From Candidatus Omnitrophota bacterium (GTDB lineage: Bacteria > Omnitrophota > Gorgyraeia > Tantalellales > Tantalellaceae), in contig JAYEOV010000035.1 in assembly GCA_034723315.1 (NCBI GenBank), forward strand, positions 8,329 through 72,328: a DNA stretch of 64,000 nucleotides, in the 5' to 3' direction. Position 1 is the first letter of the stretch. Every line of letters starts with the position of its first letter. The translations under genes and the position numbers were made by a program. Below the pieces are notes generated by a model that made no database searches, had not been told where the DNA came from, and worked only from the letters and a program-made list of their open reading frames with translations. Shown here in pieces: positions 6,956 through 51,800 of this stretch.

Positions 6956-7003
6956 CCATTTCATAACCCCGTTAGAAAATAATTATTCTAACGGGGCGAA
7001 CGG
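6956..7003. repeat. Mini/solo copy of MITE terminal sequence (CCATTTCATAACCCCGTT ... AACGGGGCGAACGG hairpin)
   Basis: Matches the left TIR plus an inverted copy of the CCGTTCG segment of the element family seen at 26489, 33403, 42657, 48573. Confidence 0.4.
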
Positions 7004-9768: not shown

Positions 9769-12700
9769 TTACGCGCAGATAGTTAGAATTGTATCCTGAA
9801 GATGATGTGTATCCTCGATATCATCCACGATCGGCGGGCAACTGTCAAAATCGGAGAAGAGCTTCTTGATGAGTTCTTCAAGGTTTTCATTTGTCGTGTT
9901 AATGATAATGTCGAATCGTTCGCCCGAAGTCAACCGTTCTTTAAGCTCGTCCGCGTCTCTGGCAGTGACGATATCACCTTTGAATCCTATAACCTTGAGT
10001 TTTCTTATCCCTTCTTCAAAATCGCTTCCATATACCAGGGCCACCTTATTGGCCGAGGCTATCTGCAGTTCCAGGGCTTTCTCATTTCTGGGAAGACTCA
10101 CTTTTAACGCTTCTTTTATATGACAAAATTTTTCATCCATGCGCATCGTTTTCGACATTATCCCTGAGATCAGGCCTTCATCTTCCAGCTGCACAAACCG
10201 TTCATCACCTACCGCATGGCCGGTGGAAATAAGGATCGGGAACTTATGGCCTCTTTCCCGGACTTTTTTCGTCAATATCAAGCCGTCAATAATATCACTT
10301 CCCCTGGCCGGCGGCATGCTCACGTCAAATATGGCAAGGTGGAACTTTAACCCCGCTTTTTCCGCCTCTTCTATCAGATCAAAGGCTTCCTGACCATTCA
10401 CGGCCAGCCAGACATTACAGCCTTCCTCCTCAAGCATGCTTTTAAACTGGTCTCTCTGGAGAAGCTCATCGTCAGCAACGATAATATTCGGCCTGTCTTT
10501 TACGATCTCCTCCGGCTTCCCGTGCAATTCTTCTTCTTCTTCTTCCATCTTAACCGGGACTCGTCTTTTACCCGGCTCAGCTTCCGCCTGCCGCAGATAA
10601 GGAATAAACATCCTGACCGCGGAACCGTCCTTCTCATTGTCAACCGTTATCCTTCCGGCAAGATACGTCAGTATCCTGTGAGCAAGCGCCAGTGAAATAT
10701 TTTTATTTTTCTCCCATTTAAGAACTTCTGCTCCCTTTTCCCCGGCTCCGAGCTCTACCCTTTCCAACTGGCTCTCAGTAAACCGGCAGTAATTATTTCT
10801 GAAAGAAACAATTACTTCTCCGCTTCTTCTGTTACGCTCGAGTTTTATGCTTAATCGTTTTTCCTGCGGATCCAGTCCCTCAACCGGGACCTCGTTAGTT
10901 TCCATCCCAAGGGTCAGGATGTTATATAATGCGAATTTAAAGGCCGCTTCGTCGGCCATGATGAAAATATCCTCTTCCGGCCGGTATAATGTCTCGACTT
11001 CATCAAAGGTGATCGTATATTGCGGGAAAAACCTTTTTGATTTCTTGAATGCAGACGCGATATCCTTAAGGACTTTTGCCACTTCTACCTGCCCCGGCTT
11101 TTTCTCAAAGCTGTCTCCTGCCGGCAGCAGAAGGCGCCCGTCGTCGATTCTTTCTTGTGTCGTGTGGAAACCTGTATATATCTTCTCAATATATTGCCTT
11201 AACTTTTCATTATCAGATCCGGCTGTTTCTTTTATAAGCTTTTCAATCGACGACAACATACCTACCATATTTATCTCTATGATCCTGAGCGTTTCAGCCG
11301 GGGCAACATTTTTTAACATAGCCTGCACCTGCCTTACCGACTCTGCCAAACGAGGCTCATGTAAAGCGGTATCCAGGTCAATATCTTTCATTATGTTCTC
11401 TACCTGTTCCATCAGGTTTTTCACTTTAATGGCCAGGACCGGATCAACGCTCTCCATTGCGGTCTGCATTTGTTTTACCAGGATCATCGCATCTTTAGCC
11501 TGGAGAAGATCAGTCGGGTCCTTGAGGATAATTGTCGGTATATTCTGCATCATCCTTATCATGTTTACTGCCTCATCCATCTGTCCGCTGATCAATTTGC
11601 ACTTTGCCAGGATATCCTCAGGCAGGTCCGGCATAAAAGTCATTATCAATTCAAGATAACCTCTACTTCCGGCTATCGCGTTGTTAAGGTCATGCCACAA
11701 GCTGCCGTATATGTTGTCCTGCGCTTCAGACGCACGGAGTTTTATCCTGTCCAGTCGACGTTCAACCAGAGGGAATTCCATTGTAAATGTCGTCCCGTGC
11801 CCTAACTGACTTTTCGCTTCCGCTGTGCCGTTATGCTCCTGGGCGACATCCCTGACGACAACAAGCCCAAGGCCGGTCCCCATACCGTCATCCCTTTTCG
11901 TATAAAAGGGTTCCCAGATATTTTGCAGGTCTTTTGCCGTGATCCCGCATCCTGTATCTCTAAAAGATACACGCATTACGTCCCTGCCTTTCTCATCCTT
12001 TGTTTTTTCCGTACCGAGAGTCAATTCCTTTGTCTTCGAGTCTCTCATAAACGATACAGCATTCATGATAATGTTAAGGAAAGCCTGTCTTAACCTGCTT
12101 CTATTGGCAATGACCACCTGCCGGTGTTCGCTTAATTCCAGTTTTACCGTTATACCCATACTCTCTATCATTGTCTTTCTCATCTCCAGGACATCCAGCA
12201 GGACTTCTTCGACGGAACAGGGGAGGTTCCCCAAATCCGGCGATCTCGCGAAGCCCAGAAACCTGTCCGTGATATCGGCAATACGCTCTGCTTCCTGTTC
12301 AATAATCGCCAGCGTCCGGATAATCTCTTCCTCTTCCACAAATCCCCCTTTGTACAGGCGGGTGAGGATCCCGTCAACAATATTAATTATGTTAGACGTG
12401 GGATTGTTTATCTCGTGAGTCAGCGCCGCTGTGTTTTCTCCGATCGCTGTAAGCCTTTCAGCCTGGACCAGGAGCGCTGTCTTTTCCTCCAATTTCGCAT
12501 AGGCGTTCTTCAGGGCGTTTTCAGCCTGTCTCCGCTTTGTAATATCCTGCATCTGCACTAAAAAACCAGACGGAACGCCGTTTTCCACGGCCAGGGGCGT
12601 TACCCTGTAATCTATGAAGACCCTCCCTGACTTTGCCTCTCCGGACAATCCGGCTTTTTTAGGCTTATCAAAATCAATTTCGTTTTCGAAGCTGATACAT

Positions 12701-15405
12701 TCTCCTTTACGAACCCTGTCTTTTTCCGTACCTATGATAATATCAAGAAAATCGAAGAGATTTAATACTTCTCTTTCTTTCCCAAAATCGGCAATGCCGT
12801 TTTCTTCTAAATACGCTCTGTCTACATATAGAAACGCCTTGTTCACATAGGTCAAGCGGCCGTCAGAATCAAAACGGGCGATCCCGATCGGCGATTCTTC
12901 GGAAATTTCCCTGAATTTCTGCTCGCTCTCCCTCAACGCTATCGCCGCGTCTCTGCGCTCTTCTTCCCGTGTAACCGCTTCCGCAAGGATCCCGAAAAGT
13001 TTCATATCACTATCATCAAGTTCAACACTTTCCTTGTATAGCACACAGAGGCTTCCAACGCGCTGCCCGGCGCTATATACCGGAAATCCGATATAGGTCC
13101 TGAACCCGTACTTCGCCACATTGGGATCGGTTTTGGAATAAGCGGTCTCTTTTACATTTCTAACAATATAAGGAAGCCCTCTAAGGCCTTTTTTGATAAC
13201 ATCATAACAGATATGGCCATCCGGTTTATCAACCGGATTATAGTCAGGTGGAGTCTCCCACTGACCTACCGAGCATAACATGCCGCCTTCCATCCTGTTA
13301 TACAAAGCACAGTCTCCGTTTAAAAATTCCCCGCAGGTCCTGGTAAGTATTTGAATATTCTCGTCATAATCGGTCCCGAGCCTGAGAAGTGCGTCATTCA
13401 GCATTAAAATACGTTCTTCTGCCAGCTTGAGCTCTGTGATGTCGCTACCCACACACAGGATCCCGGAGATGTTCCCCTTGGCATCAAAAATCGGCTTATT
13501 GGTCCATGCGATGTAGACCAGTTCGCCATCCTTACGCAAATTTGCGGTCACGTTATTGACATAATACTCGGGGTATTTTCTTATATTCAGGATCATTTCC
13601 TCGAGGTCCTGTCTGGATTTTTTTGTTTCAGGCATGATCGTGCCGATCATATTCCGGCCGAGCAATTCTTTCTCCGAATAGCCCAGAAACATCCGGGTGA
13701 ACTCATTCGCGAAAGTAATTTCTCCGTTCAAGTTCATCCTCAAAATAATGCTGTTGGCGTTCTGGACCAGATCGCGGTATTTAAGTTCACTTTCCCTGAG
13801 CCTTTCTTCCGCCTGCCTACGTGCCATCCCTCTTGAAATAATATCGCCTGCCACACGGAGGATCCTCGCGTCTTTATCACACCAATCGCGGTGCTTTTCT
13901 GTGTCTTCAATACCCATATATCCGACAAGTTCTCCATCTATCGAATACAGAGGCACAATAATAAGAGAAAAAACATTCTGATCCCGCATACTCTCCTTTT
14001 CCGCGGTCGCATCCTCCGGAAGATCATCGGTGCCCCGAATAATTATGTTTTCATTGTTCCTGAGTTTTTTCATCAACCACGGGTATATGGAAGAAACCTG
14101 ATCCTTACGGTTCTCTATCTGCGGTTCTGTATCCGGATCGCACCACTCATATGTGTTATCCATTATGCTGCCGTTTTCCCGGAAGCGAAAAATATACGCC
14201 CTATTCACGTCGACCGCTCTCCCTATAATTTTGAGGATCTGATCAAGGTCAGGGATGGGGCCTTCAACGAACATACTTGATACCTGCGCAAGAGCTTTCT
14301 CTATGTCAAGACGATATGTTAATTCTTCCTCAACCTGACGCTGATCGGCAGAATAGTCTCTGGTGGTTATTTTTTCGGTAAGATCGATAAATTCCGAGAC
14401 CCTGGCCTCATTGAGCAGATTCATCTCTCTTCCTGTCAGGTTCATCTCAGAAGGGAAAGTGCCGGGAAGGTCTATTTTTCTATCGCTAAAGCATTGAACA
14501 AAACGCTTGAATATATCCTGGAACAGGTTAGACTCCTCGTGTGTAAACCCGGCTTTTGCGAATATTTCATGAACAATTGTATCGGCATTTAAATATACCA
14601 GTTCATTTGGAAGATAAATGCCGCGGCCGCCCGCATGCGGCTCTTCTAACCTGTATTCCTTCCTCGTCTCAGTGATGAGCATAAGCTGGCTAATGCTGAC
14701 AAGTTCCCTGAAGTCTCTGGAAAGCCCGGTAGATACAATATCAAGGAACGCGTAAATACAGGAAAGGGGAAGGCCATAATTTTTCTCTGTTACAATCATA
14801 CACTTGCCGGCAAGTATGGCTTCCCGGATCTTCTCGTCATGTTTTTTTTCGCTCTCCGCAGCCATGGATATCGCGCGACCTTCCAGTCTTTCGGCATACT
14901 TTAACTGTTGGAGCTTTTCGAGAAGATCCTTTTGATTTTTTTCACGTTGCGTCAAAAACGTGATCTTATATTGAGGATCCGTACCGGGACTATCGGTTAT
15001 ACAACACCAGTAATCAGCCACCCTTTCTACTGTTCCAAATGTACACGGAACCAGGCGTAATCCAGCTTTTTTGCAATTGACCGCCCGGCTGAAATAAAAC
15101 CTTATCCTAATGTCTTCTATGTTGAAATTTATGCCCAATGATGAAGCGGAGTGGTCGCCCCATTCATTCATTACGTCTATTTTTTTATTACGCATACCTG
15201 AAACAAGGACATATTCGAGTAACGCGATATCTTTGATCTCCTTGTTAAGCAAGGGAAGAAATATGGATTGCGGCGCTATGTTTCTACCAGCAAATCTCAT
15301 GGCATAAGCCGGACTTACGCTTGTTGAAGTAATCAATAATAAAACCGTAATTATTATACTGGTTGCCTTTATTATTAAGCTATTTTTTCTTTTAAACAAT
15401 ATCAT
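9769..15405 (-). CDS. Giant hybrid sensor histidine kinase (1878 aa): N-terminal unknown domain, GAF-PAS-GAF-PAS, HisKA+HATPase, second HisKA-like+HATPase, receiver, C-terminal pseudo-receiver-like domain
   Basis: H-box THEINNPTSNI; G-boxes DTGCGI...GTGLGLVVV; second H-box SLWHDLNNAIAGSRGYLEL and second ATPase-like core; REC domain IIVADDELL...FDVSMPP... Confidence 0.85.
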   Translation of the reverse strand: MILFKRKNSLIIKATSIIITVLLLITSTSVSPAYAMRFAGRNIAPQSIFLPLLNKEIKDIALLEYVLVSGMRNKKIDVMNEWGDHSASSLGINFNIEDIRIRFYFSRAVNCKKAGLRLVPCTFGTVERVADYWCCITDSPGTDPQYKITFLTQREKNQKDLLEKLQQLKYAERLEGRAISMAAESEKKHDEKIREAILAGKCMIVTEKNYGLPLSCIYAFLDIVSTGLSRDFRELVSISQLMLITETRKEYRLEEPHAGGRGIYLPNELVYLNADTIVHEIFAKAGFTHEESNLFQDIFKRFVQCFSDRKIDLPGTFPSEMNLTGREMNLLNEARVSEFIDLTEKITTRDYSADQRQVEEELTYRLDIEKALAQVSSMFVEGPIPDLDQILKIIGRAVDVNRAYIFRFRENGSIMDNTYEWCDPDTEPQIENRKDQVSSIYPWLMKKLRNNENIIIRGTDDLPEDATAEKESMRDQNVFSLIIVPLYSIDGELVGYMGIEDTEKHRDWCDKDARILRVAGDIISRGMARRQAEERLRESELKYRDLVQNANSIILRMNLNGEITFANEFTRMFLGYSEKELLGRNMIGTIMPETKKSRQDLEEMILNIRKYPEYYVNNVTANLRKDGELVYIAWTNKPIFDAKGNISGILCVGSDITELKLAEERILMLNDALLRLGTDYDENIQILTRTCGEFLNGDCALYNRMEGGMLCSVGQWETPPDYNPVDKPDGHICYDVIKKGLRGLPYIVRNVKETAYSKTDPNVAKYGFRTYIGFPVYSAGQRVGSLCVLYKESVELDDSDMKLFGILAEAVTREEERRDAAIALRESEQKFREISEESPIGIARFDSDGRLTYVNKAFLYVDRAYLEENGIADFGKEREVLNLFDFLDIIIGTEKDRVRKGECISFENEIDFDKPKKAGLSGEAKSGRVFIDYRVTPLAVENGVPSGFLVQMQDITKRRQAENALKNAYAKLEEKTALLVQAERLTAIGENTAALTHEINNPTSNIINIVDGILTRLYKGGFVEEEEIIRTLAIIEQEAERIADITDRFLGFARSPDLGNLPCSVEEVLLDVLEMRKTMIESMGITVKLELSEHRQVVIANRSRLRQAFLNIIMNAVSFMRDSKTKELTLGTEKTKDEKGRDVMRVSFRDTGCGITAKDLQNIWEPFYTKRDDGMGTGLGLVVVRDVAQEHNGTAEAKSQLGHGTTFTMEFPLVERRLDRIKLRASEAQDNIYGSLWHDLNNAIAGSRGYLELIMTFMPDLPEDILAKCKLISGQMDEAVNMIRMMQNIPTIILKDPTDLLQAKDAMILVKQMQTAMESVDPVLAIKVKNLMEQVENIMKDIDLDTALHEPRLAESVRQVQAMLKNVAPAETLRIIEINMVGMLSSIEKLIKETAGSDNEKLRQYIEKIYTGFHTTQERIDDGRLLLPAGDSFEKKPGQVEVAKVLKDIASAFKKSKRFFPQYTITFDEVETLYRPEEDIFIMADEAAFKFALYNILTLGMETNEVPVEGLDPQEKRLSIKLERNRRSGEVIVSFRNNYCRFTESQLERVELGAGEKGAEVLKWEKNKNISLALAHRILTYLAGRITVDNEKDGSAVRMFIPYLRQAEAEPGKRRVPVKMEEEEEELHGKPEEIVKDRPNIIVADDELLQRDQFKSMLEEEGCNVWLAVNGQEAFDLIEEAEKAGLKFHLAIFDVSMPPARGSDIIDGLILTKKVRERGHKFPILISTGHAVGDERFVQLEDEGLISGIMSKTMRMDEKFCHIKEALKVSLPRNEKALELQIASANKVALVYGSDFEEGIRKLKVIGFKGDIVTARDADELKERLTSGERFDIIINTTNENLEELIKKLFSDFDSCPPIVDDIEDTHHLQDTILTICA

Positions 15406-26488: not shown

Positions 26489-26606
26489 TAGAACCCATTT
26501 CATAACCCCGTTCGTTACGAGGCTGAGCGAAAAGGCCATTGACAAGGCCTGAGGGGCAAAATGCCCGGAAACGTAGCCGTTGCGCTACGTTGATGATATT
26601 TTGTCC
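26489..26606 (+). mobile_element. MITE-like element copy (left TIR + core, right end truncated)
   Basis: AGAACCCATTTCATAACCCCGTTCGTTACGAGGCTGAGCGAAAAGGCCATTGACAAGGCCTGAGGGGCAAAATGCCCGGAAACGTAGCC...GCTACGTTGA core shared with the 48573 copy. Confidence 0.55.
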
Positions 26607-33363: not shown

Positions 33364-33402
33364 CCGGTAGTGCGTATTATATCATACGCACCCCGCTTTT
33401 CT

Positions 33403-33700
33403 AGAAGCCATTTCATAACCCGGTTCGTAACGAGGCTGAGCGAAAAAGCCTTTAGCCCTTCGACTCAGGCCCCGGCTTTAGCCGGGGCCTTCGCTCCCTT
33501 CGGCTTCGCTCAGGGCAAGCAGGATTCCGCCCCACCCGGGCGGTAAGGGTGGTGCCCCGGGTTTGCCGGGGGCTCCACAAAGCCTGAGCGGCAAAAAGCC
33601 CGGAAACGTAGCCCCAATCTGCTACGTTGAGGACTTTTTGCTGCGAAAACGCAGCTAACGGCTTTTGCAGCCAGCCGCAGTAGAACAGGGTTTTGTAGTT
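33403..33700 (+). mobile_element. MITE-like element, long variant (~300 bp) with GC-rich insert module
   Basis: Left TIR AGAAGCCATTTCATAACCCGGTTCGTAACGAGGCTGAGCGAAAAAGCC..., internal CCGGAAACGTAGCC...CTACGTTGA hairpin, right end TTTTGCAGCCAGCCGCAGTAGAACAGGGTT. Confidence 0.55.
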
Positions 33701-36394: not shown

Positions 36395-36565
36395 CAACAA
36401 ACTTCCCTGCAGCTTGCTGCGGGGAAGTTTACCCCGCACCGAACCGCATTGGGTTCGGGGTTCTCGTCCCGTACCCAAAGTGGTACGGGAGATTCCGCCC
36501 TACAAGTGGAATCCCGCAGAAAAAGGAGCCGCGGACTCAAGTCCGCGGGACTCCATCCGATCAAC
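36395..36565 (-). repeat. MITE-related internal module, inverted orientation, no recognisable TIRs
   Basis: GATTCCGCCCTACAAGTGGAATCCCGCAGAAAAAGGAGCCGCGGACTCAAGTCCGCGGGACTCC matches the reverse complement of the insert in copy 42657..42838. Strong hairpin GGAGCCGCGGACTCAAGTCCGCGGGACTCC. Confidence 0.45.
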
Positions 36566-41243: not shown

Positions 41244-41420
41244 CTTTTTTAATATTAATAATAGTTATATACACCTTAAATAATATTATTATAGCGGCAT
41301 TTTCAAGTTTGACCACTGTGGGCCGTAGACAATTGACAATAGGCCGATCAGCGGGTCTTTTCTATTTCAAGTATTTCTACCGGTACGCCCCAGGAATGAA
41401 AAAGGAACTTTCTTTCTAGG

Positions 41421-41467
41421 CCCCGTTCGTTACGAGGCTGAGCGAAAAGGCCATTGACAAGGCCTGA
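41421..41467 (+). repeat. MITE core fragment (CCCCGTTCGTTACGAGGCTGAGCGAAAAGGCCATTGACAAGGCCTGA)
   Basis: Identical to the core of copies at 26489 and 48573; no TIRs. Confidence 0.5.
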
Positions 41468-41483
41468 CACCAATAAAATATTA

Positions 41484-42059
41484 TCAGAGACGGGGCCTGT
41501 GGCGCATTCTGCGCGTGGTCCCGGTACCGACTTGTTGTTGGGTTCCGTAATGGCCTCCGCCGTGGTAAGGGCCGCCTGCATATTCGCCGGCGGAATATAT
41601 GCCGGCGCTTTTATATAGATCTTTTAACTTTTCCAGCTGGTTTTTTGTGTATATTTTTATGAGCTTGTCGTGGACCGAGACGAGATACTGGCTTTTCTTT
41701 TTTTCCAGTTCGTGTTTTTGGGCTACAAGCGGGGTTATCATCTCGGTGTTCACGGGGACCTCCCACATCAGGGTGTTTATCTCAACCGTGAGCGTCTGAA
41801 TGTCGGCGTCCTGACGGATGAGGCTTTTACTTACCTCTTTTGACAGGTCTTTTATCTGCTTGACTTGTTCGTCCGAGAGCTCAAGCGCCATGCTGCTGTT
41901 CATGGCAAGGTTCACCTCGCTAAAGAACCTGTGTTCAAGGTCCTGCCCGGTTGATACGCCCGGACCATATCTGCCGGATTTTTGCGCGAGTGTTACACAC
42001 GTTCCGATAAAAAACATCATTGCGGTTAATACTAAGACTATTAGAACTCTCTTATTCAT
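41484..42059 (-). CDS. Periplasmic Spy/CpxP-like protein (weaker LTXXQ-like)
   Basis: Signal peptide, coiled coil, LSDEQ motif, Gly/His-rich C-terminus. Confidence 0.35.
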   Translation of the reverse strand: MNKRVLIVLVLTAMMFFIGTCVTLAQKSGRYGPGVSTGQDLEHRFFSEVNLAMNSSMALELSDEQVKQIKDLSKEVSKSLIRQDADIQTLTVEINTLMWEVPVNTEMITPLVAQKHELEKKKSQYLVSVHDKLIKIYTKNQLEKLKDLYKSAGIYSAGEYAGGPYHGGGHYGTQQQVGTGTTRRMRHRPRL

Positions 42060-42267
42060 AATCTCCCCTTTCGTCCCAAAATCTTAACGCGGACCGACCC
42101 GGTCGGACATGCCCGGGCCGCGCGATATTATTATATGTCATACTCTGGCAGGAGAAAACTTCTAAAATAGAAACAGCGCCAATTTTTTTTCTGGATTTAA
42201 ACCGTTCGTCGCTTTTACCCCGTTAGAGAAGCCTGCTCTGGGCTTCTCTAACGGGGTTCACCTGATT

Positions 42268-42606
42268 TCAATAAATTACAATAAAGGATTCAAATTCTCC
42301 GTTATAAGTCTCCCAGTTGATTTCCACGTTGTCAACACGCGCCATGGGCGGACCATGATAACACCAGTTTGTCATTTTATCTATATCTTCCTTTTTTCCT
42401 TCAAAAACCGCCTCTACCCTGCCGTCCCAGGAGTTCCTTACCCACCCTGTAATGAATAACGTCATGGCTTTTTCTTTTGTATAGCTCCTGAAAAAGACAC
42501 CTTGAACCAGCCCTGATAAAAATACATGCGCTCTTGCTTTAGCCATTTCTTTTGTTTTCGATAAATTAAATCCAAAAAAACTATCAATTACAATTTTATT
42601 ATACAA
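42268..42606 (-). CDS. acyP: Acylphosphatase
   Basis: VFLSGLVQGVFFRSY and GWVRNSWDGRVEAVFEG signature motifs. Confidence 0.7.
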   Translation of the reverse strand: MYNKIVIDSFFGFNLSKTKEMAKARAHVFLSGLVQGVFFRSYTKEKAMTLFITGWVRNSWDGRVEAVFEGKKEDIDKMTNWCYHGPPMARVDNVEINWETYNGEFESFIVIY

Positions 42607-42656
42607 TAATCTTTTTTATAAAAAAGCCAATTTTAACCTTTATTATTATTGACTAT

Positions 42657-42838
42657 AACCCCGTTCGTTACGAGGCTGAGCGAAAAAAGCATTGACAAGG
42701 CCTGAGGGGTGGAGCCCCGCGGACTGAAGTCCACGGCTCCTTTTTCTGCGGGATCTCACCTGTAGGGCGAAATCCCGAAAACGCAGCCAATGGGTTTTGC
42801 AGCCAGCCGCAGTAAAACAGGGTTATGAAATGGGTTCT
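42657..42838 (+). mobile_element. MITE-like element copy (left TIR missing, right TIR intact)
   Basis: Core CCCCGTTCGTTACGAGGCTGAGCGAAAAAAGCATTGACAAGGCCTGAGG, GC-rich hairpin insert, right end TTTTGCAGCCAGCCGCAGTAAAACAGGGTTATGAAATGGGTTCT. Confidence 0.55.
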
Positions 42839-43069
42839 AAAGAAGAACTGGAGAATATCTTTGACAAGCACAAAAAACTTTACACGGCTAAAGAAAAACT
42901 GGGGCCTGGACTTGCGATCATACAGGATATTGTGAACATGCACAAAGGAAAAATCTGGGCCGAAAGCAACCCCAAGAAAGGTAACAGGTTTATTGTAGAA
43001 CTCCCCAAAAACATAGCATCAAAAAGCTGCGCCCTTAAGTGGATTCACTCCTCGTCGTCCACTTTATAA
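42830..43069 (+). pseudogene. Sensor histidine kinase C-terminal fragment (HATPase_c G2 box only)
   Basis: ...ELENIFDKHKKLYTAKEKLGPGLAIIQDIVNMHKGKIWAESNPKKGNRFIVELPKN; begins exactly at the ATG within the MITE right TIR; the rest of the kinase is absent. Confidence 0.5.
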
Positions 43070-43734
43070 CCGATGCCTCTCACGTTCTTGATAAGCTTGC
43101 TCGTCTTACCGAGTTTCTCCCGCAGATGTCGTATATGGACGTCAATGGTGCGTGTTATCACCACTTTCTCTTCACCCCACAGGTAATCCAGGATCCTGTC
43201 CCGCGTGAAAACCTGTCCTTTCCTTGAACAGAGCAATTCCAATATCTTAAATTCCGTAGGGGTAAGAGCTACTTTCTTTCCTTCGGCTGTTACCTGATAT
43301 TTCTGTTGATCTATTACCAGCAAATCACTTATATTGATCACTTTAGGCTTTTCTTCCGGTTCCAGCCTTCTCAGGACCGCCTTTATCCTTGCCCCCATCT
43401 CTTTCAATGAAAAAGGTTTAACTATATAGTCGTCGGCTCCGATCTCAAGGCCCAGGACCTTGTTGGTCTCCTCGTCCCTGCCTGAAAGGATTATGATGGG
43501 TATAGTGGAAAGTTCCTCCTTAACCTTCAATAACCTGCATATCTCAAAACCGTCCATTTCGGGCAGCATCAGGTCAAGGATAATAAGATCGGGTTTTTTT
43601 GTTTCCAGGAAATTGAACAGGCTATGTCCTTCCAGAAATCCTTTGACCTTGAACCCCTCGTCGGTAAGATATTCCGTCACCATATTTACTATAGCGTGTT
43701 CGTCATCCACTATAACTATCAGTTTTTTGTCCAT
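43045..43734 (-). CDS. OmpR-family DNA-binding response regulator
   Basis: REC domain (DDEH...DLIILDLMLP), winged-helix C-terminus (VFTRDRILDYLWG...). Confidence 0.85.
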   Translation of the reverse strand: MDKKLIVIVDDEHAIVNMVTEYLTDEGFKVKGFLEGHSLFNFLETKKPDLIILDLMLPEMDGFEICRLLKVKEELSTIPIIILSGRDEETNKVLGLEIGADDYIVKPFSLKEMGARIKAVLRRLEPEEKPKVINISDLLVIDQQKYQVTAEGKKVALTPTEFKILELLCSRKGQVFTRDRILDYLWGEEKVVITRTIDVHIRHLREKLGKTSKLIKNVRGIGYKVDDEE

Positions 43735-43770
43735 ATCACTTCTTTCGGTATGGCTATTATTTTATCTGTT

Positions 43771-43980
43771 TTAGGTCTTCTTTCTGATCAAAGATTCAAT
43801 TACCCTTACAAGCAAATACAAAGAAAGAGAACAAAAGATCCCTTTTGCAAGGAAATACCAGGCAACCGCATCGTTTGAAAACTCACCCTTAAAAACACCG
43901 TTGCCGAGCAGGAAGGAATAAACGCATATAAGAAAAACGGCCACCGCCGCAGCATCCACTAATGCCTTTTTCTTTTTCAT
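43771..43980 (-). CDS. Small membrane protein, hypothetical
   Basis: 69 aa, 2 TM. Confidence 0.3.
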   Translation of the reverse strand: MKKKKALVDAAAVAVFLICVYSFLLGNGVFKGEFSNDAVAWYFLAKGIFCSLSLYLLVRVIESLIRKKT

Positions 43981-44227
43981 CTTCTCACCCCGGACTCAAA
44001 AAAATCAAGAAAATAAAGCCCTGAAAAGAGGGGCTTATGGACCACTTTTACGATGATATTAAGGGTAGAGATCTCCTTATTACATTTTCTATTGAGTATA
44101 AGGAAATCTTGTGCCAAGTCAAGGTAAAGCAGGGATTACTGGTGTCAAAGATTATGTGTACTTTCATATTAACAGATCCCAGCCGGAGTTTATCCCCGTA
44201 AAAGCAGGGGAGGGAATAACAGAGTAT

Positions 44228-44767
44228 TCATTCCTGCCTCGCCTGATCCTCTTTGTCGATCTTGTCCAGCTCTTTCTTTATCGCCTGCATCGCCTGAATG
44301 GTCTTGCCAAGCTTATCGCTTATATCCCTGGTCAATTCAGCCTTTTCCTGCTCTGTTGCCGGCACACCGCCTGCCGCGCCCCCGGTTATTTTCCGCACTT
44401 TCCGCCATATCCTGACCATTTTCGCCGTTATCTTTGCATAATTCTCGCTCCAGCCCTTCTCGCCGGCAGCCGGTGCCTTTACACCGCCTTTCGGCGCAGC
44501 CTTCTCAGCTGGCTGAATGTCCTTGACCTCCTCTTTTATCACCTGGAGTATCTTTATGGTCGTATCTATCTTCTTGTCAAGGTCTTTTGACCATACTGTT
44601 TCTTCACCCGCGGTATTCTCCTGTTTCTCGTCCCCACCGACTGCGGCGTAAAGCGGCCCAACGCTTATAAACAACACGAAGATGCTCAGCATCGTCATTA
44701 TCGTCGTGCGCCTGCCTCGAGCGAAGTCAAGGGGTATTGCGTATATTGTATTGCGTTTTTTATTCAT
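44228..44767 (-). CDS. Hypothetical secreted/anchored coiled-coil protein
   Basis: N-terminal hydrophobic segment, Lys/Glu-rich coiled coil. The track ORF start (44809) lies inside the family-2 repeat, so an internal Met is preferred. Confidence 0.35.
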   Translation of the reverse strand: MNKKRNTIYAIPLDFARGRRTTIMTMLSIFVLFISVGPLYAAVGGDEKQENTAGEETVWSKDLDKKIDTTIKILQVIKEEVKDIQPAEKAAPKGGVKAPAAGEKGWSENYAKITAKMVRIWRKVRKITGGAAGGVPATEQEKAELTRDISDKLGKTIQAMQAIKKELDKIDKEDQARQE

Positions 44768-44791
44768 CGTAAACCTCATTGTTTTGTTAAA

Positions 44792-44905
44792 AATATATTC
44801 TGGGGACATGCCTGGGCGAGCAAAATTAGCGTCTACAACAGGCGTGTCCCCGGAACTTCATCAATGCCATAGTGTCGTCTGCAACAAGCGTGTCCCCAGA
44901 ACTTC
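44792..44905 (-). repeat. Structured ~110-bp repeat element (family 2), copy 2 (inverted relative to copy 1)
   Basis: ATATATTCTGGGGACATGCCTGGGCGAGCAAAAT...CAACAGGCGTGTCCCCGGAACTTC...CAACAAGCGTGTCCCCAGAACTTC. Confidence 0.5.
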
Positions 44906-44948
44906 CTGAGCATAGCCGAAGGGTCAGTCGCGTAAGCCATGCGCTCAT

Positions 44949-45455
44949 TTAACTTGTTATTCTGTAAATCACTATCGAAAGCATGGCAAAGGCTATCACC
45001 AGTTTAGCCGCTATTGACCCTAACCTTCCCAGGACCCCTCCCGTACCTGCCTTCATTGACTTGATCAGATCCCTCTGAAGAATCAATTCTACCAGAAAAG
45101 CGCCTAGAAAAATACCCAAAAATGTTCCTGCGATCAGCCCAACTCCAAAAAATGCCGTTCCCGCAACCGCTCCGAGAACACCGCCAATAATGGCCCCAAA
45201 AACAGCCGCGTTGGATGCCCCCAGATTCTTGGCGCCCAGAACAATAAAAACGTATTCCAGGACCTCGCCAAAAAGGTATAAAGCGCACAGGATCACAAGT
45301 ACTTTCAGTGTGATAACTGAAAATCCTGTCATCAGCGCGTAAAGAATTGTGCCGACCAAGATCAACAGGGTCCCGAACGTAGTGAAGAAGATGGCGATAA
45401 TACCGGCCAATGTGAATATCAACAATACTGATAAGGCCAGAATATTCATGATCAT
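44949..45455 (-). CDS. DUF456 family membrane protein
   Basis: 168 aa Gly-rich polytopic membrane protein with the DUF456-like pattern. Confidence 0.55.
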   Translation of the reverse strand: MIMNILALSVLLIFTLAGIIAIFFTTFGTLLILVGTILYALMTGFSVITLKVLVILCALYLFGEVLEYVFIVLGAKNLGASNAAVFGAIIGGVLGAVAGTAFFGVGLIAGTFLGIFLGAFLVELILQRDLIKSMKAGTGGVLGRLGSIAAKLVIAFAMLSIVIYRITS

Positions 45456-45482
45456 GATCCGGTACCCTTATATCCCCATTAT

Positions 45483-45839
45483 TTAAACGAATATCAGCAT
45501 CAGGCCGATCGCAAGAAAAAGTATGGCCCAGATCCTGAAAAAAATCAGAGGCCTGTCCGCCAACCATGTGGCTATCTTTAACGATGCCTTCGAAGTCAGC
45601 AGCATTATCGCTTTTATCGTTATTATCATCCCGATTATCCCAACCACCTTCGCAGACAATCCCGGGGCTTTGATCACGCTGCCGATCATGAGAAAACCGA
45701 ATACAATCACAAAGACGTAAACGACTCGCTTTGTCCTTCGGCCCATTTTTCTCTTAAGCCGGTCTTTCAAGGTCTGCGGCCTTACCAGCCAGAATGCACC
45801 AAGAACGATCCATATCGCGCCAAGTATCTTAGAAAGCAC
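45483..45839 (-). CDS. Small membrane protein, hypothetical
   Basis: 118 aa, 3-4 TM. Confidence 0.35.
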   Translation of the reverse strand: MLSKILGAIWIVLGAFWLVRPQTLKDRLKRKMGRRTKRVVYVFVIVFGFLMIGSVIKAPGLSAKVVGIIGMIITIKAIMLLTSKASLKIATWLADRPLIFFRIWAILFLAIGLMLIFV

Positions 45840-45849
45840 TTATTACTCC

Positions 45850-47061
45850 TTAACGGTTATTTCCCTCGGGGACTTTTCTTGTAATTAATATTCCCGCAAT
45901 GATGAAAACGGTCTGTATGAGCATAGCGACCCTGTATTTAGATGCTCCCATAAAACCGAAGACAAGGATCGATAGCCCCCAGATAAGCGGCCCCAAAATA
46001 GCGGAAGACTTTCCGACCAGCCCGAGAAGGCCGAATATCTCGCCCAGCTTTTCCTCCGGACAGAGCTTTACCGCCAAAGCGCGGCTGGTTGTCCAGACCG
46101 AACCAAGGGCCACTCCGATCAACGGTCCGACGATCCAGAACATTATTCTGGAAAAAGCGCAAGCTGCCAGGACAAGACACACGAACCATAAAAACAAGGA
46201 GATCATAAGGGACCTTTTCGCTCCTAGCCTGTCCGCCATGAAGCCGAAAAAGAGCGATCCGAATATGGCCATTACAGTTGAAAAAAGAAACAGGGCTATC
46301 AGCTCACTGTCGCTGAACAGCGCAACTTTCTTCATATATACCGACATGAACACGATAAGAGTATTCACGGCGTTGAGGAATAAAAAGGCCCCCAGAAGGA
46401 ACAGTAACAGCCCCGGGTATCGGTCCCGGTTTGAAAACGTCTCTTTTATGCGGGATACTACATTCCCCATACGGAATTTATCCGCAGGCCTCTTAACAGC
46501 ACTTTCTTCTCTAACCAGGAAAAAGCATGGCAGCGAAAATATGAAAAAAAGCACCGCCGTCGGGACAAAAGCTGCCTGGTGGCCGTACCTTATGACAAAA
46601 GGCCTGGTAATGAGCATACCGACAATAGCGCCTACATAACCGAACCCTGTTCCCAGGCCGGATACCCTGCCGATCTCATTATGGCCACATATCCTCGGGA
46701 GCATCGCATTATAGAAGATGGTCGCTACCTGGTAGAAAAGATTGGCCATGAAAAATATGAGAAGACCCGAGAAAACATCTTTTGCCAACCCGAGAAAAGC
46801 CGTAAAGGCGCATGCAAGAACCGTGAAAAACACAAGAAAAGGTATCTTTCTTTTGAAAATATCGGAAACCGCGCCCAAAAACGGTTCCAGGAGAGCCGCC
46901 ATCAAGAGCGAACCGGACAGCGTTATACTGTAGAATATGTCCTCCCTGCCCTTGTCCACTGTTACCCAAAGGACAAAATACAGGGATATCACGTTCATTG
47001 AAAAGATCGTGTTGGCAAAATCGTATAAAGCCCAGCCGAAAACAGGCAATCTTTTACGCAC
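45850..47061 (-). CDS. MFS transporter
   Basis: 403 aa, 12 TM, MFS motif A-like GRVSGLG. Confidence 0.7.
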   Translation of the reverse strand: MRKRLPVFGWALYDFANTIFSMNVISLYFVLWVTVDKGREDIFYSITLSGSLLMAALLEPFLGAVSDIFKRKIPFLVFFTVLACAFTAFLGLAKDVFSGLLIFFMANLFYQVATIFYNAMLPRICGHNEIGRVSGLGTGFGYVGAIVGMLITRPFVIRYGHQAAFVPTAVLFFIFSLPCFFLVREESAVKRPADKFRMGNVVSRIKETFSNRDRYPGLLLFLLGAFLFLNAVNTLIVFMSVYMKKVALFSDSELIALFLFSTVMAIFGSLFFGFMADRLGAKRSLMISLFLWFVCLVLAACAFSRIMFWIVGPLIGVALGSVWTTSRALAVKLCPEEKLGEIFGLLGLVGKSSAILGPLIWGLSILVFGFMGASKYRVAMLIQTVFIIAGILITRKVPEGNNR

Positions 47062-47418
47062 TTTAAACCTCCTGCATAATCAATTATCCTATCTCTTGTT
47101 TATCTTGTCAAAGAACTTCTTACAGATCCCCGCTTTCCCTGAGGGCCTCTGGCCTCAGGATTTCTTGGCCAACACTATAACTCCAATGCCAAGGCCCCTT
47201 TTGTGCGCGCCTCGGGTGCTCGCACGGTGTCCTCGGGCCTTCGCCCTCGGTCACGCGGGAATGACACTGAGGAAAGTGCCGACAATATGTTACACTATCC
47301 TTTTACAGATTTCTCGACTCGCCCCTATTGGTATCAGGTGTCAGGGCTCTATAAAAAAAAGGGGACGAAACCCTATTTTTTAAATAGGATTCCGTCCTTT
47401 TTTTTCAAACCATCGATC

Positions 47419-47796
47419 TTATGCTTCGACCTTTTTGTCGATAAGGAATAACTCCTCGACGTTCTCCTCCGCCCAGCCGAGGCTATAACCGGGTCTTCCG
47501 GGCTCGCTTGACATATCCGGTCTTTCCGGGGCATCCTCTATGGCGGGTATTTCCGGGTTGCCCTCTGTCCAGGGGACCGAAGGAAGACATGCTATAGCTT
47601 CTTTCTGGAAGGCAAACGTCCTGTTATATTCGTCATACAAAACATCATTCTCGAACCAACCTATATGCTTTCCCCCAAGCGAATAGACATTATTATTCAC
47701 CAACCAGCCAAGGTTTTTTCCTTCCCTGCTGATAAAGCGGTCTTCATAAAGAAAAAGGCAAGGGTTTCCCTTTCTGTTGAAAAGCCACTCAGCCAT
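47419..47796 (-). CDS. Hypothetical protein with repeated G-x-H/N-[IL]-GW beta motifs
   Basis: GKNLGWLVNNNVYSLGGKHIGWFENDVLYDE repeats; no confident family. Confidence 0.35.
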   Translation of the reverse strand: MAEWLFNRKGNPCLFLYEDRFISREGKNLGWLVNNNVYSLGGKHIGWFENDVLYDEYNRTFAFQKEAIACLPSVPWTEGNPEIPAIEDAPERPDMSSEPGRPGYSLGWAEENVEELFLIDKKVEA

Positions 47797-48029
47797 TTCA
47801 CCCTCCTCACTGGTTAGAACTCAATCCGTGACTTTATAAAAGTCGAAAAAATGATAATATATAAATCTTTTAACCATATTAATAATAGCATATATTAATT
47901 AATTTTTATATATAATTTAGCTAATTTTTGGTTAACTTTTGGTGTGAAGATCACAGGCGGGAAACAAGTGCCGAAAGCATTTTCGATTATATCGTATGTC
48001 GTATTGCGTTTTTTTCTTTTTATTTTTTT

Positions 48030-48581
48030 TTATATATTACGCCCCTCTTTTTTGGCCTTTATATATTCCGGAGGCACATTTTTTGCAAGGAATAGTTTTC
48101 CTTCCCTGTAGAACTTTATATCTTTAAGGGCCGCCTCTTTTGCCATTACCTCCAGAATAACCGGAGTCTGAGCATGCCGCATGCCGACCATGTATGCATC
48201 TTTCTCGTTCGAGCTGAGATGGACGAACTGCCTGCTCATGGGCTTCAGGCCTTCTGCAAGAATCTTTTCAAGATCTTCCGGAGATGTTCCGTGATAGAGA
48301 ACTTCCGGAGGTATTATACTTTCCGAGCCGGGCCGGACTTCGAGGGAATGGCCGTAAGTGGCCCTTATCTTTTTTGCCGAGACCTCAAAACGCCCTTTCG
48401 GTTCATTTTTTACGAGTTCAAAAAGGTCCTCTTCCTTAAACTTCCTGAATCTTTTCCTGAGGACCCGCAGGACATCGGCTAACGGGGCGTACCCACACCC
48501 GTCCAGCTCAAGATCCCAGCTGCCGGGATCATGACGAAGTATATATGACAGGAACTTGCTCAGTTTTATCTTAGAAACCAT
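48030..48581 (-). CDS. kptA: RNA 2'-phosphotransferase KptA/Tpt1
   Basis: SKFLSYILRHDPG...LDG.GYA N-terminus, YHGTS, VHLS motifs. The start codon lies inside the MITE left TIR. Confidence 0.75.
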   Translation of the reverse strand: MVSKIKLSKFLSYILRHDPGSWDLELDGCGYAPLADVLRVLRKRFRKFKEEDLFELVKNEPKGRFEVSAKKIRATYGHSLEVRPGSESIIPPEVLYHGTSPEDLEKILAEGLKPMSRQFVHLSSNEKDAYMVGMRHAQTPVILEVMAKEAALKDIKFYREGKLFLAKNVPPEYIKAKKEGRNI

Positions 48582-48752
48582 TTCATAACCCGGTTCGTAA
48601 CGAGGCTGAACGAAAAAGTCATTGACAAGGCCTGAGGGGCAAAATGCCCGGAAACGTAGCCGGTGCGCTACGTTGAGGACATTTTACCCCGAAAACGCAG
48701 TCAATGACTTTTGCAGCCAGCCGCAGTAGAACGGTGTTATGAAATGGTTTCT
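48573..48752 (+). mobile_element. Complete MITE-like element (180 bp) with 17-19-bp terminal inverted repeats
   Basis: Left AGAAACCATTTCATAACCC; right GGTGTTATGAAATGGTTTCT; core GGTTCGTAACGAGGCTGAACGAAAAAGTCATTGACAAGGCCTGAGGGGCAAAATGCCCGGAAACGTAGCCGGTGCGCTACGTTGA. Confidence 0.65.
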
Positions 48753-48921
48753 ATAGCTTGACACCTTGCCGTCTACCATCTGCTGGCCGCACGTCCTGCT
48801 ACATTGCTCGGCCAATTTTGTCAAATGTTGACAGGCTGACCAGGAATATAAATTTTCAAAAATTAGATATTAAAAATAAAGGACTTACAACAATAATCTA
48901 TTCGAAAAAGGCTATTCTCGG

Positions 48922-50445
48922 TCAGCCTGTTGAGCCCTGACCCCCTAATGGGGAGACGGTGATCGCCCTCGCCGGACGGACGGGACATTTCGTCTGGCAT
49001 ATCCCGCAACCGATACAAAGATCCGGATCTACAACCGGTCTTCTTACTGACCGGCCGCCTATATTGAATTCTTTTATCCGTATAGCTTTTTCAGGGACCG
49101 GACAATGTTCTTCACAGATCAGACATTCGGCGTTCCAGACCCATGCTATGCAGCTCGACCGGTCCACGTTCGCGACACCGAGTTTTGTTTTTTTCTTCTC
49201 TTCAAGCTTAAGCCTCGGAATCGCTCCGGTTGGGCACGCACTGCCGCAAAGAATGCAGTTGTATTCACAATACCCTATTTCGGGAACGAGATGCGGCGTC
49301 CAGATCCCCTCCAGCCCGGCCTGGAACATCGCAGGCTGAAGCCCGTTGGTCGGACAGACCTTCATACAGTTCCCGCAACGCACGCAACGGCTTAAGAACT
49401 CATCCTCCCTCAAGGCCCCGGGCGGTCTTATAACCGGAGACGCGTTTTCCTTCTTTTTACCCCACTTGAATCCCGACACGAACACAGAGGAAAAGACCAT
49501 AAAGAGAAACTCCCGTCGGGATATCCCCCTCTTGCCGTTTTCATCCTTTTTCAACACCGATGATCGTCCCGCGGGAAAAAACGTGAATCTTGTACCTCCA
49601 TGGAGGCAATCGTACACGCAGTCCATGCAGAGAATACATTCGCCCTTAACATAGCTGTTGTCGTCATTTATGGCCCCCATCCGGCAGTTCCTAACGCATT
49701 CTCCGCAAGAGACGCACTTATCTGCAACCCGCCGTAAAACAGCGAATCTCGAAACAACCGAATAAAAAGCTCCCAGAGGGCAAATGAAGCGGCACCATAA
49801 CCTTGAGACAAGAAGAGCCGTGATACATATTAAAACGAAAAACACGAATATTATTCCCGAATTCGCGAAATAATGCGCTTTTACGCCCAAGAAAGACATC
49901 TTAAGAGAACTATAAAGATCTTGTACCGGCCCGTACAGGTTGAGATCCCGTATCAAAAACACGAAAAATCTGTCTGTCACGGACGTAAAGGCCGGTATAA
50001 GGTTCAACGAAACGAAACGCGCCATTATCACCATCGGATCAAGCACCCACGCGGCCTGCACACCGAAAAGGGCGCTAACGAGAACCGCCCCCAGTAAAAA
50101 GAACTTGATCTTACGCAACTTCGCGCCGGCGCGCCCTTTTACCGGTATTTTCTTTTTTCTTGCAGCGCCCGTAAGGTCTATGACCGTTCCCAGGGGGCAC
50201 ACCCACCCGCAGTAGAATCTGCCAAGGAACAACGTAAGAACCAGCATTCCCAGACAAACGGCCAGTCCCGGCAGAAACAGCCGTTCGCTTACGGAAGTGA
50301 ATATCACTATGTTGGGGTTTGTCCTGAAAAACGTTTCCGGCGGCAGGATGCCCTTCAATGGATACGTCGTCGACCAGAGTATATATACGAAAAGCAGCAG
50401 GAAAAAAGCCTGTGAAGATCTCCTCAGAATTATCAGCTTTTTCAT
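48922..50445 (-). CDS. Membrane-bound polyferredoxin (NapH/MauN-like TM domain + multiple 4Fe-4S ferredoxin domains)
   Basis: Two CPLG(T/A) motifs in the TM region (GWVCPLGT, RFICPLGA), then 6-7 CxxCxxCxxxCP clusters. Confidence 0.65.
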   Translation of the reverse strand: MKKLIILRRSSQAFFLLLFVYILWSTTYPLKGILPPETFFRTNPNIVIFTSVSERLFLPGLAVCLGMLVLTLFLGRFYCGWVCPLGTVIDLTGAARKKKIPVKGRAGAKLRKIKFFLLGAVLVSALFGVQAAWVLDPMVIMARFVSLNLIPAFTSVTDRFFVFLIRDLNLYGPVQDLYSSLKMSFLGVKAHYFANSGIIFVFFVLICITALLVSRLWCRFICPLGAFYSVVSRFAVLRRVADKCVSCGECVRNCRMGAINDDNSYVKGECILCMDCVYDCLHGGTRFTFFPAGRSSVLKKDENGKRGISRREFLFMVFSSVFVSGFKWGKKKENASPVIRPPGALREDEFLSRCVRCGNCMKVCPTNGLQPAMFQAGLEGIWTPHLVPEIGYCEYNCILCGSACPTGAIPRLKLEEKKKTKLGVANVDRSSCIAWVWNAECLICEEHCPVPEKAIRIKEFNIGGRSVRRPVVDPDLCIGCGICQTKCPVRPARAITVSPLGGQGSTG

Positions 50446-50505
50446 CCTATATCTCCACCCCGCGATGAATCAGGGGGGTCATGAATCAGGAACAATAATA
50501 TACCA

Positions 50506-50524
50506 GGGTTATAAAATTGGTTCT
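50506..50524. repeat. Degenerate solo MITE right TIR (GGGTTATAAAATTGGTTCT)
   Basis: 15/19 match to GGGTTATGAAATGGGTTCT; overlaps the stop of the malic enzyme gene. Confidence 0.3.
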
Positions 50525-51800
50525 AATAGGTCGGGATCTCCTTAAGCCCGGCCACACCTTCTTTTATGGCGGCTTCAGCTACCGCCTTTGACTCCCATTC
50601 TTTTATCCTGGGATCAAAAGGTGTCGGGATCAGATAATCCGGGGCGAACTCAAAGTTCCTGCCGTAAGCGGTCTTTACTTCTTCGGGAATATAACTCTCA
50701 CGCGCAAGAGCCGCAAGAGCCTCCGCTGCAGCTATTTTCATGCCCATAGTTATTTTTTTCGCCCGGACGTCAAGGGCCCCACGGAATATGAAGGGAAAGC
50801 CCAGAACGTTATTTATCTGGTTCGGAAAATCAGACCGCCCTGTCGCCAACACGTACTTTCGGCCTTTCATGCATTCTGCGACATCCTGCGGCATTATCTC
50901 AGGGACCGGGTTGGCCATCGCGAAAATGGCCGGATAATCGGACATCGAAAGGACCATCTCGGGCCTCACGCATCCAGCGACCGATACGCCGATGAAGACG
51001 TCCGCGCCGGCCATCGCGTCCGCAAGCGTCCTCTTTGCGGTATCAATCGCATGCGGTCTCTTATACTTATTGAGGTCCTCTCTGTTTTTACTCAGCACGC
51101 CTTTTGAATCACATAGAATACAATCCCTGACCCCGTCGGTTTTTATCATCTCGGCTATCCTCAGGCCCGCCGCCCCCGCGCCGTTTATCACTACTGAAAG
51201 GTCCCCCGCCTTCTTGCCGGAGAGCTTGCTATAGTTCTTGAGAGCCGCCAGGGTGATTATGGCTGTGCCCCACTGGTCATCGTGGAACACGGGTATGTCC
51301 AGCATCTCGTCAAGCCGGTCTTCTATCTCAAAACAGGCCGGTGCGGCGATATCTTCCAGATTGATCCCCCCGTACATGCCCGCTATTTTAACAGTAGTAT
51401 CTATGAACTTTTCTATATCCGTGCGCCCGTCCGGGCCCAGTACGCCTTCAAGAGGAACTGGCCAGCCGTCAACCCCGGCAAAGGCTTTGAAAAGAACGGC
51501 TTTACCTTCCATTACCGGTATGGACGGTCCGGGGCCGATATTTCCAAGACCCAGCACTGCCGTGCCGTCGGTAATTACAGCCACGAGATTCCCCTTCGCG
51601 GTCAGAGAATAAGCAAGGTTCTCGTCCCCTGCGATAGCTTCGCATATTTTTGAAACACCGGGAGTATAGGCCATGCTGAGATCTTTCTGATCGGTAAGTT
51701 TCTTCAGGAGTTCCAGACCGATCTTCCCCCCCATATGATATTCAAATACCTCTTCTTCTGTTATGATTAATTTATTCTGTTCCAAGTTGATACCTTTCAA
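50523..51800 (-). CDS. NAD(P)-dependent malic enzyme (short form)
   Basis: LSMAYTPGVSKICEAI, dinucleotide fold GAGAAGLRIA, 425 aa. Confidence 0.8.
   Translation of the reverse strand: MKGINLEQNKLIITEEEVFEYHMGGKIGLELLKKLTDQKDLSMAYTPGVSKICEAIAGDENLAYSLTAKGNLVAVITDGTAVLGLGNIGPGPSIPVMEGKAVLFKAFAGVDGWPVPLEGVLGPDGRTDIEKFIDTTVKIAGMYGGINLEDIAAPACFEIEDRLDEMLDIPVFHDDQWGTAIITLAALKNYSKLSGKKAGDLSVVINGAGAAGLRIAEMIKTDGVRDCILCDSKGVLSKNREDLNKYKRPHAIDTAKRTLADAMAGADVFIGVSVAGCVRPEMVLSMSDYPAIFAMANPVPEIMPQDVAECMKGRKYVLATGRSDFPNQINNVLGFPFIFRGALDVRAKKITMGMKIAAAEALAALARESYIPEEVKTAYGRNFEFAPDYLIPTPFDPRIKEWESKAVAEAAIKEGVAGLKEIPTY

Follow-up and report, generated by a model that had tools for sequence, protein, structure and literature searches.

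A sensor kinase gene cut short at the end of a MITE-like repeat, beside an intact OmpR/PhoB-family regulator gene in an Omnitrophota contig

Results

Layout of the locus

The DNA that we analysed, a 64-kb stretch (the window) of a 76-kb contig from a metagenome-assembled Candidatus Omnitrophota genome, carries a response regulator gene of the OmpR/PhoB family and, converging on it from the opposite strand, a short open reading frame that NCBI annotates as a gene (Table 1). As an earlier note on this locus had described, the two overlap by 25 nt (43045..43069), and the regulator is recognised by matches to both Response_reg and Trans_reg_C. On its other side the short frame runs out of a MITE-like element, a short non-coding mobile repeat that is truncated at its left end; an AT-rich spacer extends from that end to the start of an acylphosphatase gene. 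The note had also placed a MITE and an acylphosphatase gene where the body of a kinase would be expected, and this is what lies there: the element belongs to a repeat family found by blastn, and the acylphosphatase matches Pfam at E=5e-26 and NCBIfam PRK14444 at 111.9 bits (cutoff 103). We considered whether the acylphosphatase might be functionally tied to the orphan regulator and rejected the idea because this neighbourhood is seen in no relative. Eleven nucleotides after the acylphosphatase stop codon there is an inverted repeat (42217..42257) whose two perfectly matching 17-bp arms, ACCCCGTTAGAGAAGCC / GGCTTCTCTAACGGGGT, enclose a 7-nt loop. It is unique in the window, has no T-run, and has ACCCCGTTAGA in common with the MITE-end fragment at 6953..6973.

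Table 1. Positions of the features discussed in the text; coordinates are those of the window except in the last three rows, which refer to the loci of relatives.
Feature	Position	Strand	Remarks
MITE family, fragment	6953..6973		recognised on side-by-side reading of the copies
MITE family, partial copy	26489..~26600		blastn span 26502..26556
MITE family, partial copy	33402..~33700		blastn spans 33415..33447 and 33644..33695
MITE family, left-arm-only fragment	41417..41470		blastn span 41421..41467
Acylphosphatase gene, 92 aa from ATG at 42546	42268..42546	-	first gene of the non-syntenic left flank
AT-rich spacer, 17% G+C, 108 nt	42547..42654		left side of the breakpoint
MITE-like element, copy C (at the stub), 185 nt	42655..42839		blastn, sequence comparison, alignment, fold
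Annotated ORF, 79 aa, 'ATP-binding protein', MEA3489396.1	42830..43069	+	NCBI annotation
Kinase-derived remnant, 59 codons	42839..43015	+	residues 264-322 of the intact 326-aa orthologue
Decayed kinase-regulator spacer	43016..43044		three-way DNA alignment with L081 and L086
OmpR/PhoB-family response regulator, MEA3489397.1	43045..43734	-	Response_reg E=8e-29; Trans_reg_C E=7e-27
MITE family, sole complete copy, 182 nt	48572..48753		blastn span 48585..48756; reference for the terminal repeats
MITE family, solo right repeat	50504..50525		blastn span 50504..50526
c-di-GMP-I riboswitch in L081	9946..10030		Rfam RF01051, 77-86 bits across the three loci
c-di-GMP-I riboswitch in L086	4474..4558		as above
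c-di-GMP-I riboswitch in L084	10581..10665		as above

A kinase remnant within the annotated frame

Searched against Pfam, the annotated frame matches HATPase_c at 34.4 bits (curated gathering cutoff 26.4; E=3.2e-8), and the match is limited to profile positions 51-110 of 111. The similarity is significant, and it bears out the reading of the frame as the C-terminal end of a sensor kinase, from the G2 box to the C terminus. Some particulars of the earlier note need correction. The kinase-derived part comprises 59 codons rather than the 70 proposed, and the frame 42830..43069 is not a kinase end throughout: the first 3 codons belong to the MITE repeat and supply its start, the 59 kinase codons follow, and the last 18 form a read-through tail that has no counterpart in 11 orthologues. 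With the first TTG taken as an alternative start, the frame would run from 42797 to 43069 (+).

The remnant spans the end of the ATP-binding domain, from the G2 box to the C-terminal strands. What is missing is residues 1-263, and with them both membrane helices, the HisKA domain, and the N and G1 boxes. Accordingly small is the part of the ATP-binding site that is left, the G2 region only, and the Pfam search found no match in the stub to a HisKA/DHp domain with its H box. The intact kinase at L081, one of the loci from related genomes that we compared, aligns by tblastn over residues 264-322 with exactly this segment (63% identity, E=2e-21). Over the same 59 residues the stub is 66% identical to the L086 kinase, and its identity to the L170 kinase is 64%. 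No other fragment of an L081-type kinase was found by tblastn in the 64 kb.

Searches with the stub itself brought little else. A word-index protein search returned the stub as its sole hit, with no homologue of similar length. Scanning metagenome contigs gave generic kinases only, with no closer relative and no independent assembly of the strain; these kinases are mostly 36-50% identical to the stub over comparable stretches, and the two higher identities, 53% and 64%, span just 33-38 residues.

The ATG at 42830 is preceded by AGGG seven bases upstream. We found no promoter-like site facing the stub, and a TTGACA inside the MITE was rejected as its promoter because a matching -10 element was not found. 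Also rejected was the proposal that a terminator-like hairpin on the minus strand of the stub (42972..42957) is the reason for its retention. The hairpin is weak (6 pairs including 2 G-T) and results from the codons of the conserved KIWAES stretch, and the overall number of such terminator-like sites is within about two standard deviations of shuffled controls.

Intact orthologous kinases in relatives

In L081, L083 and L086 a kinase of 325-326 aa with HisKA and HATPase_c domains converges on the orthologous regulator gene, about 60 nt past the stop codon; HisKA occupies residues 101-168 of the intact orthologue. The intact kinase that the earlier note had expected beside this regulator in related genomes is therefore present, and the stub has the position and orientation of these kinases. 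Convergence of the two genes, which the note had pointed out, turns out to be the conserved state in the closest relatives. It is thus not part of the damage, and we rejected it as a product of rearrangement.

More distant loci are arranged in other ways. The kinase gene of L088 is convergent and lies two genes off the regulator, and that of L170 is linked to the same gene cluster, yet is divergent and on the other side of the cluster. L084, L085 and L089, the regulators of which are 65-67% identical to that of the window, have no kinase or remnant nearby and no stub. Since they have no stub, they are not cases of the same arrangement lacking a kinase; they do indicate that a regulator without an adjacent kinase occurs in other lineages too.

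A search with the intact kinase returned 11 clusters of 324-344 aa (P0122-P0132), after which identity falls to 33%, and the clusters are almost all from Omnitrophota where named. Judged by its sequence, the stub is closer to this family of regulator-paired Omnitrophota kinases than to other kinases. The only other kinase domain detected in the window, an unrelated one, belongs to a 1878-aa ORF at 9769..15405 (-), where 233 residues (11755..12429) align with the L081 kinase at 22% identity (E=2e-12). This domain could conceivably act as an alternative phosphodonor.

The boundary between repeat and kinase

Kinase homology begins at about 42839/42840, both at the protein level (tblastn) and in a three-way DNA alignment. 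This is the end of the right terminal repeat, where the earlier note had put the beginning of the stub. The junction reads ...GGGTTC TA AAGAAGAACTG, and the annotated ATG (42830) and the codons that follow it (ATG GGT TCT A) belong to the terminal repeat. The kinase is inactivated, and the break coincides to the base with the end of the MITE. An ancestral CCT AAA GAA (Pro-Lys-Glu; compare the conserved Ile-Pro-x of the family) would place the element at a TA of the gene.

A family of MITE-like repeats

A blastn search of the 64-kb window with 42600..42860, together with the side-by-side reading noted in Table 1, gives 7 copies or fragments of the family, all of them partial except the one at 48572..48753; the E values of the main copies range from 9e-24 to 4e-15. 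The complete copy begins with TAGAAACCATTTCATAAC... and ends with ...GTTATGAAATGGTTTCTA, the family having ends of the TAGAAACCATTTCATAACCC type. It forms a single long hairpin (-50.3 kcal/mol, z=-9.5 versus shuffles), with 18 nt of perfect terminal repeat and pairing that runs on over almost the whole element. Every intact end of the family is flanked by, or finishes in, TA, which fits a TA duplication of the IS630/Tc1-mariner type or a TA that is part of the repeat. There is no ORF inside the 182-nt and 185-nt copies except for the chance run-in of the stub ORF, and a check of window ORFs brought up no transposase with these ends.

The copy at the stub, copy C, departs from this pattern. Its right terminal inverted repeat is complete (42816..42839), and its right end GGGTTATGAAATGGGTTCTA (42820..42839) is the exact reverse complement of 26489..26508, the left end of the copy at 26489. 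Its left terminal repeat is without its outermost 13 nt. In place of the core found in the other copies there is another module (about 42710..42775), and the element folds poorly (z=-2.1). It has a mosaic look, with arms like one set of copies and a core like another, and its longest exact match to any other window copy is 32 nt.

Beyond the window, blastn of the MITE against 1.6 Mb of loci fetched from other organisms gave zero matches, and two patterns drawn from its arms had no match in viral contigs. Rfam, run over the whole 64-kb window, gave no match either, which means that the repeat belongs to none of the known RNA families and that the window contains no riboswitch. A literature search yielded no account of MITEs in Omnitrophota and none of a stub, MITE and regulator arranged in this way. 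The family is apparently undescribed.

Some copies carry or adjoin other sequences. The core of copy C is a G+C-rich hairpin module that recurs alone at 36491..36558 (-) with 87% identity, and within the copy at 33402..33700 about 190 nt (33450..33640) are taken up by other palindromic repeats, nested and likewise rich in G+C; the separate core module and the nested palindromes suggest a second small repeat family. The solo right repeat at 50504..50525 is situated between the genes for malic enzyme and Fer4, and at this point L081 has one gene more, of the DUF362 kind. Beside the complete copy is a non-syntenic Tpt1 gene, at a place where L081 has a gene for an APH-family kinase.

Decay of the remnant

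In 22 of the 59 aligned columns the 11 orthologues all have the same residue. The stub departs from them in 4 of these 22: in its G2 box G has become K and L has become P, and the other two changes are K to Q and L to I. Its G2 box reads KLGPGL, compared with GxGLGL in 11 of 11 orthologues. When the orthologues are left out one at a time, each breaks 0-2 invariant columns, most often none. In Tajima-type counts the stub has 8-12 changes of its own and the intact closest orthologues 2-5; the excess of substitutions in the stub comes to about 15% of its residues. For the relative rate, three of the five outgroups give p=0.02-0.07, whereas the remaining two give no significant difference (overall p=0.02-0.39). 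Normally conservation is higher in the kinase tail (its last 59 residues) than in the regulator (L081 versus L088: 70% in the kinase tail, 64% in the regulator). The window has the reverse of this usual order, the stub being 54% identical to L088 while the regulators are 66% identical.

Aligned with L081, the DNA of the window has three deletions, of about 9 nt, about 19 nt and about 19 nt. The shortest takes out the kinase stop codon, one of the longer two removes the loop and second arm of the terminator hairpin that the two genes have in common in relatives, and the other lies in the spacer. L081 has AAAAGCCGCGGAAACGCGGCTTTT between the two stop codons; in the window the surviving arm of this two-way terminator hairpin is AAAAAGCTGCG (43021..43031). 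These deletions of stop codon, terminator and spacer account for the 18-codon tail and the 25-nt overlap with the regulator gene. The decay is modest, since the 59 codons are still an open frame and are called as a gene by NCBI.

The response regulator

All of D10, D11, D54, S84 and K106 are present in the translation of the regulator. Its closest counterparts in the protein collection (P0003 and P0004), those of L081, L083 and L086, are 75% identical. Against the outgroups it is 65-67% identical, compared with 64-69% for the L081 regulator. To judge by these comparisons the regulator is intact and evolves at a normal rate. It falls below all NCBIfam equivalog cutoffs, and so is best described as a generic member of the OmpR/PhoB family. 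The best of these matches is to PhoB (TIGR02154), and at 234.7 bits, under the cutoff of 296.2, we rejected its identification as PhoB proper. A scan of reference genomes gave a best match of 54% identity and no close relative.

A predicted membrane protein of 69 aa (43771..43980, -) travels with the regulator gene and swaps sides: it is encoded upstream of the regulator in the window and in L089, and downstream in L084 and L085, at 68-77% identity.

The break in gene order

Over the stretch that begins with the malic enzyme gene and ends with the regulator gene (51764..43051), the genes of the window are in the same order as in L081, L084 and L085. The next features past this conserved side in the relatives are a c-di-GMP-I riboswitch and a giant exoprotein gene with a TPS (two-partner secretion) domain, the riboswitch lying directly upstream of that gene in L081 and L084. 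Neither the riboswitch, searched with Rfam, nor a TPS homologue was found in the 64-kb window, and the genes of the left flank have no counterpart at the corresponding position in any relative. The locus has lost its neighbours on the kinase side. Compared with an L081-like ancestor the loss amounts to at least 4 kb, of which the kinase accounts for 0.8 kb, the spacer for 0.4 kb and the TPS gene for >2.8 kb; this is a minimum figure, as the contigs of the relatives end 1-3 kb past the kinase.

The sole match from the left flank to any of these loci is a 191-aa ORF at 41484..42059 (-), which is 35% identical to L085 6621..7082. The L085 gene belongs to the conserved cluster and is found upstream of the regulator. 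The product of the 191-aa ORF looks secreted, and the MITE fragment at 41417..41470 is just beyond the 3' end of the ORF.

Discussion

The comparison with relatives supports the suggestion of the earlier note that a two-component system has here undergone a MITE-associated deletion or rearrangement. The stub is very probably a non-functional remnant of a sensor kinase that was the normal partner of the adjacent regulator. Its annotation as an 'ATP-binding protein' would instead make the 79-aa ORF a functional small protein, in keeping with the open frame, the AGGG before the ATG and the NCBI CDS call. We consider this extremely improbable. A protein without HisKA and without the N and G1 boxes is predicted neither to bind ATP nor to be competent for phosphorylation, two residues that are invariant in 11 of 11 orthologues have been replaced in the G2 box, and the word-index search gave no homologue of similar length. 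Moreover, the start codon is an accident of the repeat, and no promoter-like site faces it.

With the stub read as a kinase remnant, the following history can be proposed. The ancestor would have had a kinase of ~326 aa, with two membrane helices, HisKA and HATPase_c, encoded tail to tail with the regulator gene, and the two genes would have had a two-way terminator hairpin in common. The MITE then came, we propose, to abut codon 264 of the kinase, and everything upstream of that codon would have been lost from this locus: 263 codons, the promoter, the c-di-GMP riboswitch and the giant gene for the TPS exoprotein. On its truncated left side the element now faces an unrelated acylphosphatase gene. 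The remnant has since drifted, acquiring the substitutions in its G2 box and losing its stop codon and half of the terminator. The regulator probably stays under selection, phosphorylated by another donor or acting without phosphorylation. It is possible that it is now activated through a cross-talk kinase or by small-molecule phosphodonors, or that it is drifting towards loss. The comparisons show what the remnant is, where exactly its boundary lies, how the locus is arranged in the closest relatives, that synteny breaks here and that the remnant has decayed. We infer both the order and type of these events and the present working mode of the regulator from the arrangement that is left.

Several routes could have led to this arrangement, and under every one that we considered the kinase is broken at codon 264. 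The most likely, which we would nevertheless put at somewhat less than an even chance, is insertion of the MITE at a TA in the kinase gene with a later deletion outward from inside its left repeat. This route would trace the loss of the 13 nt and that of the kinase body to a single second event. The element may instead have made the deletion itself: resident upstream of the acylphosphatase gene, it would have removed the DNA from its right end to a TA in the kinase in one transposase-mediated step. Such a step would agree with a perfect right terminal repeat that abuts the kinase at a TA and with a left end in ordinary AT-rich intergenic spacer. We regard it as rather unlikely, however, as it needs the acylphosphatase region to have been the former distant neighbour of the kinase, which no relative shows, and the truncated left repeat still requires a separate event; nor is there a transposase with these ends among the ORFs checked. 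The chances given for these routes presuppose the main reading and should not be added to those given for its rivals.

Two further explanations would keep the missing DNA in the genome. A segment may have been moved or inverted without loss, by recombination between MITE copies or by a transposase, so that the 5' part of the kinase, the riboswitch and the TPS gene persist elsewhere, next to another MITE end. Recombination between two copies could also have produced a deletion. The break lies exactly at a MITE end, and the MITE remnants at 48572 (Tpt1) and 50504 (DUF362 in L081) are also at differences in gene content, but the kinase 5' fragment, the riboswitch and the TPS homologue are all missing from the 64 kb; we think such a rearrangement has only a small chance of being correct. 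Less probable again is a chimeric assembly, in which the contig would jump inside the repeat to a MITE copy that fronts the acylphosphatase gene, with the 5' part of the kinase still in the genome. The source is a metagenome-assembled contig and the breakpoint is in a repeat, one that belongs to a multi-copy family (7 in 64 kb) and is here mosaic-like with an incomplete left repeat. Against a chimera, the longest exact match of copy C to any other copy in the window, 32 nt, does not reach the length of the final k-mers that metagenome assemblers commonly use. The homologues from NCBI Omnitrophota genomes include no annotated N-terminal kinase fragment, a result to be read with the reservation that pseudogenes would go unlisted. 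The kinase would be disrupted at codon 264 even so.

Preferring, then, the reading in which a MITE cut the kinase short and the rest was lost, we can place the locus among known cases. Bacterial MITEs that disrupt or truncate genes include the Correia elements of Neisseria, RUP of Streptococcus pneumoniae, and Nezha of cyanobacteria. Like these, the family described here is about 180 nt long, non-coding and multi-copy, with long terminal inverted repeats that form a hairpin. It also resembles known bacterial MITEs in having TA at both ends, in lying between genes or at gene ends, and in its association with gene inactivation and breaks in synteny. Unlike them, it has no parent insertion sequence that can be seen in the window, and most of its window copies are partial; the likeness is one of description, not of sequence. 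The copy at the stub in turn differs from the rest of its own family in its core and its truncated left end.

Orphan regulators of the OmpR/PhoB family that remain after loss of the cognate kinase are a well-known outcome of the decay of two-component systems. The regulator studied here is like them in its intact receiver and winged-helix domains, in having all acceptor residues, and in the absence of a neighbouring kinase. It is unlike the usual orphan in that the loss of the kinase is directly visible, because a remnant is still in place. The event as such is of an ordinary, well-understood kind, with a gene truncated by a mobile element and a regulator left orphaned, and it has no bearing on open questions in signalling or transposition. 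Its interest is as a clean, datable case of a mobile repeat dismantling a two-component system in a poorly known, uncultured phylum. What is new is the probably undescribed Omnitrophota MITE family, the remnants of which coincide with breaks in gene order, and the annotation error of the 79-aa ORF. For annotation, MEA3489396.1 is better treated as a pseudogene fragment with a repeat-derived start codon and the neighbouring regulator as orphaned.

The start codon leads to one further observation. The apparently functional gene for a Tpt1/KptA RNA 2'-phosphotransferase at 48030..48581 (-) matches Pfam at E=1.2e-38 from residue 3 onwards. Read outward, the left repeat of the complete MITE copy (48572..48591) supplies ATG GTT TCT A, which is the start and first three codons of this gene, and the Tpt1/KptA ORF has no other start codon ahead of its conserved LSKFLSYILRH motif. 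It is tempting to speculate that the terminal repeat carries an outward-facing start codon (…GGGTTATGAAATGGNTTCTA) that serves whichever gene it has landed beside, improbable as we judge this to be. If it were true and general, the MITE family would be a portable translation-start cassette that keeps 5'-truncated genes expressed, and the 79-aa stub could be a peptide that is made, though probably a useless one.
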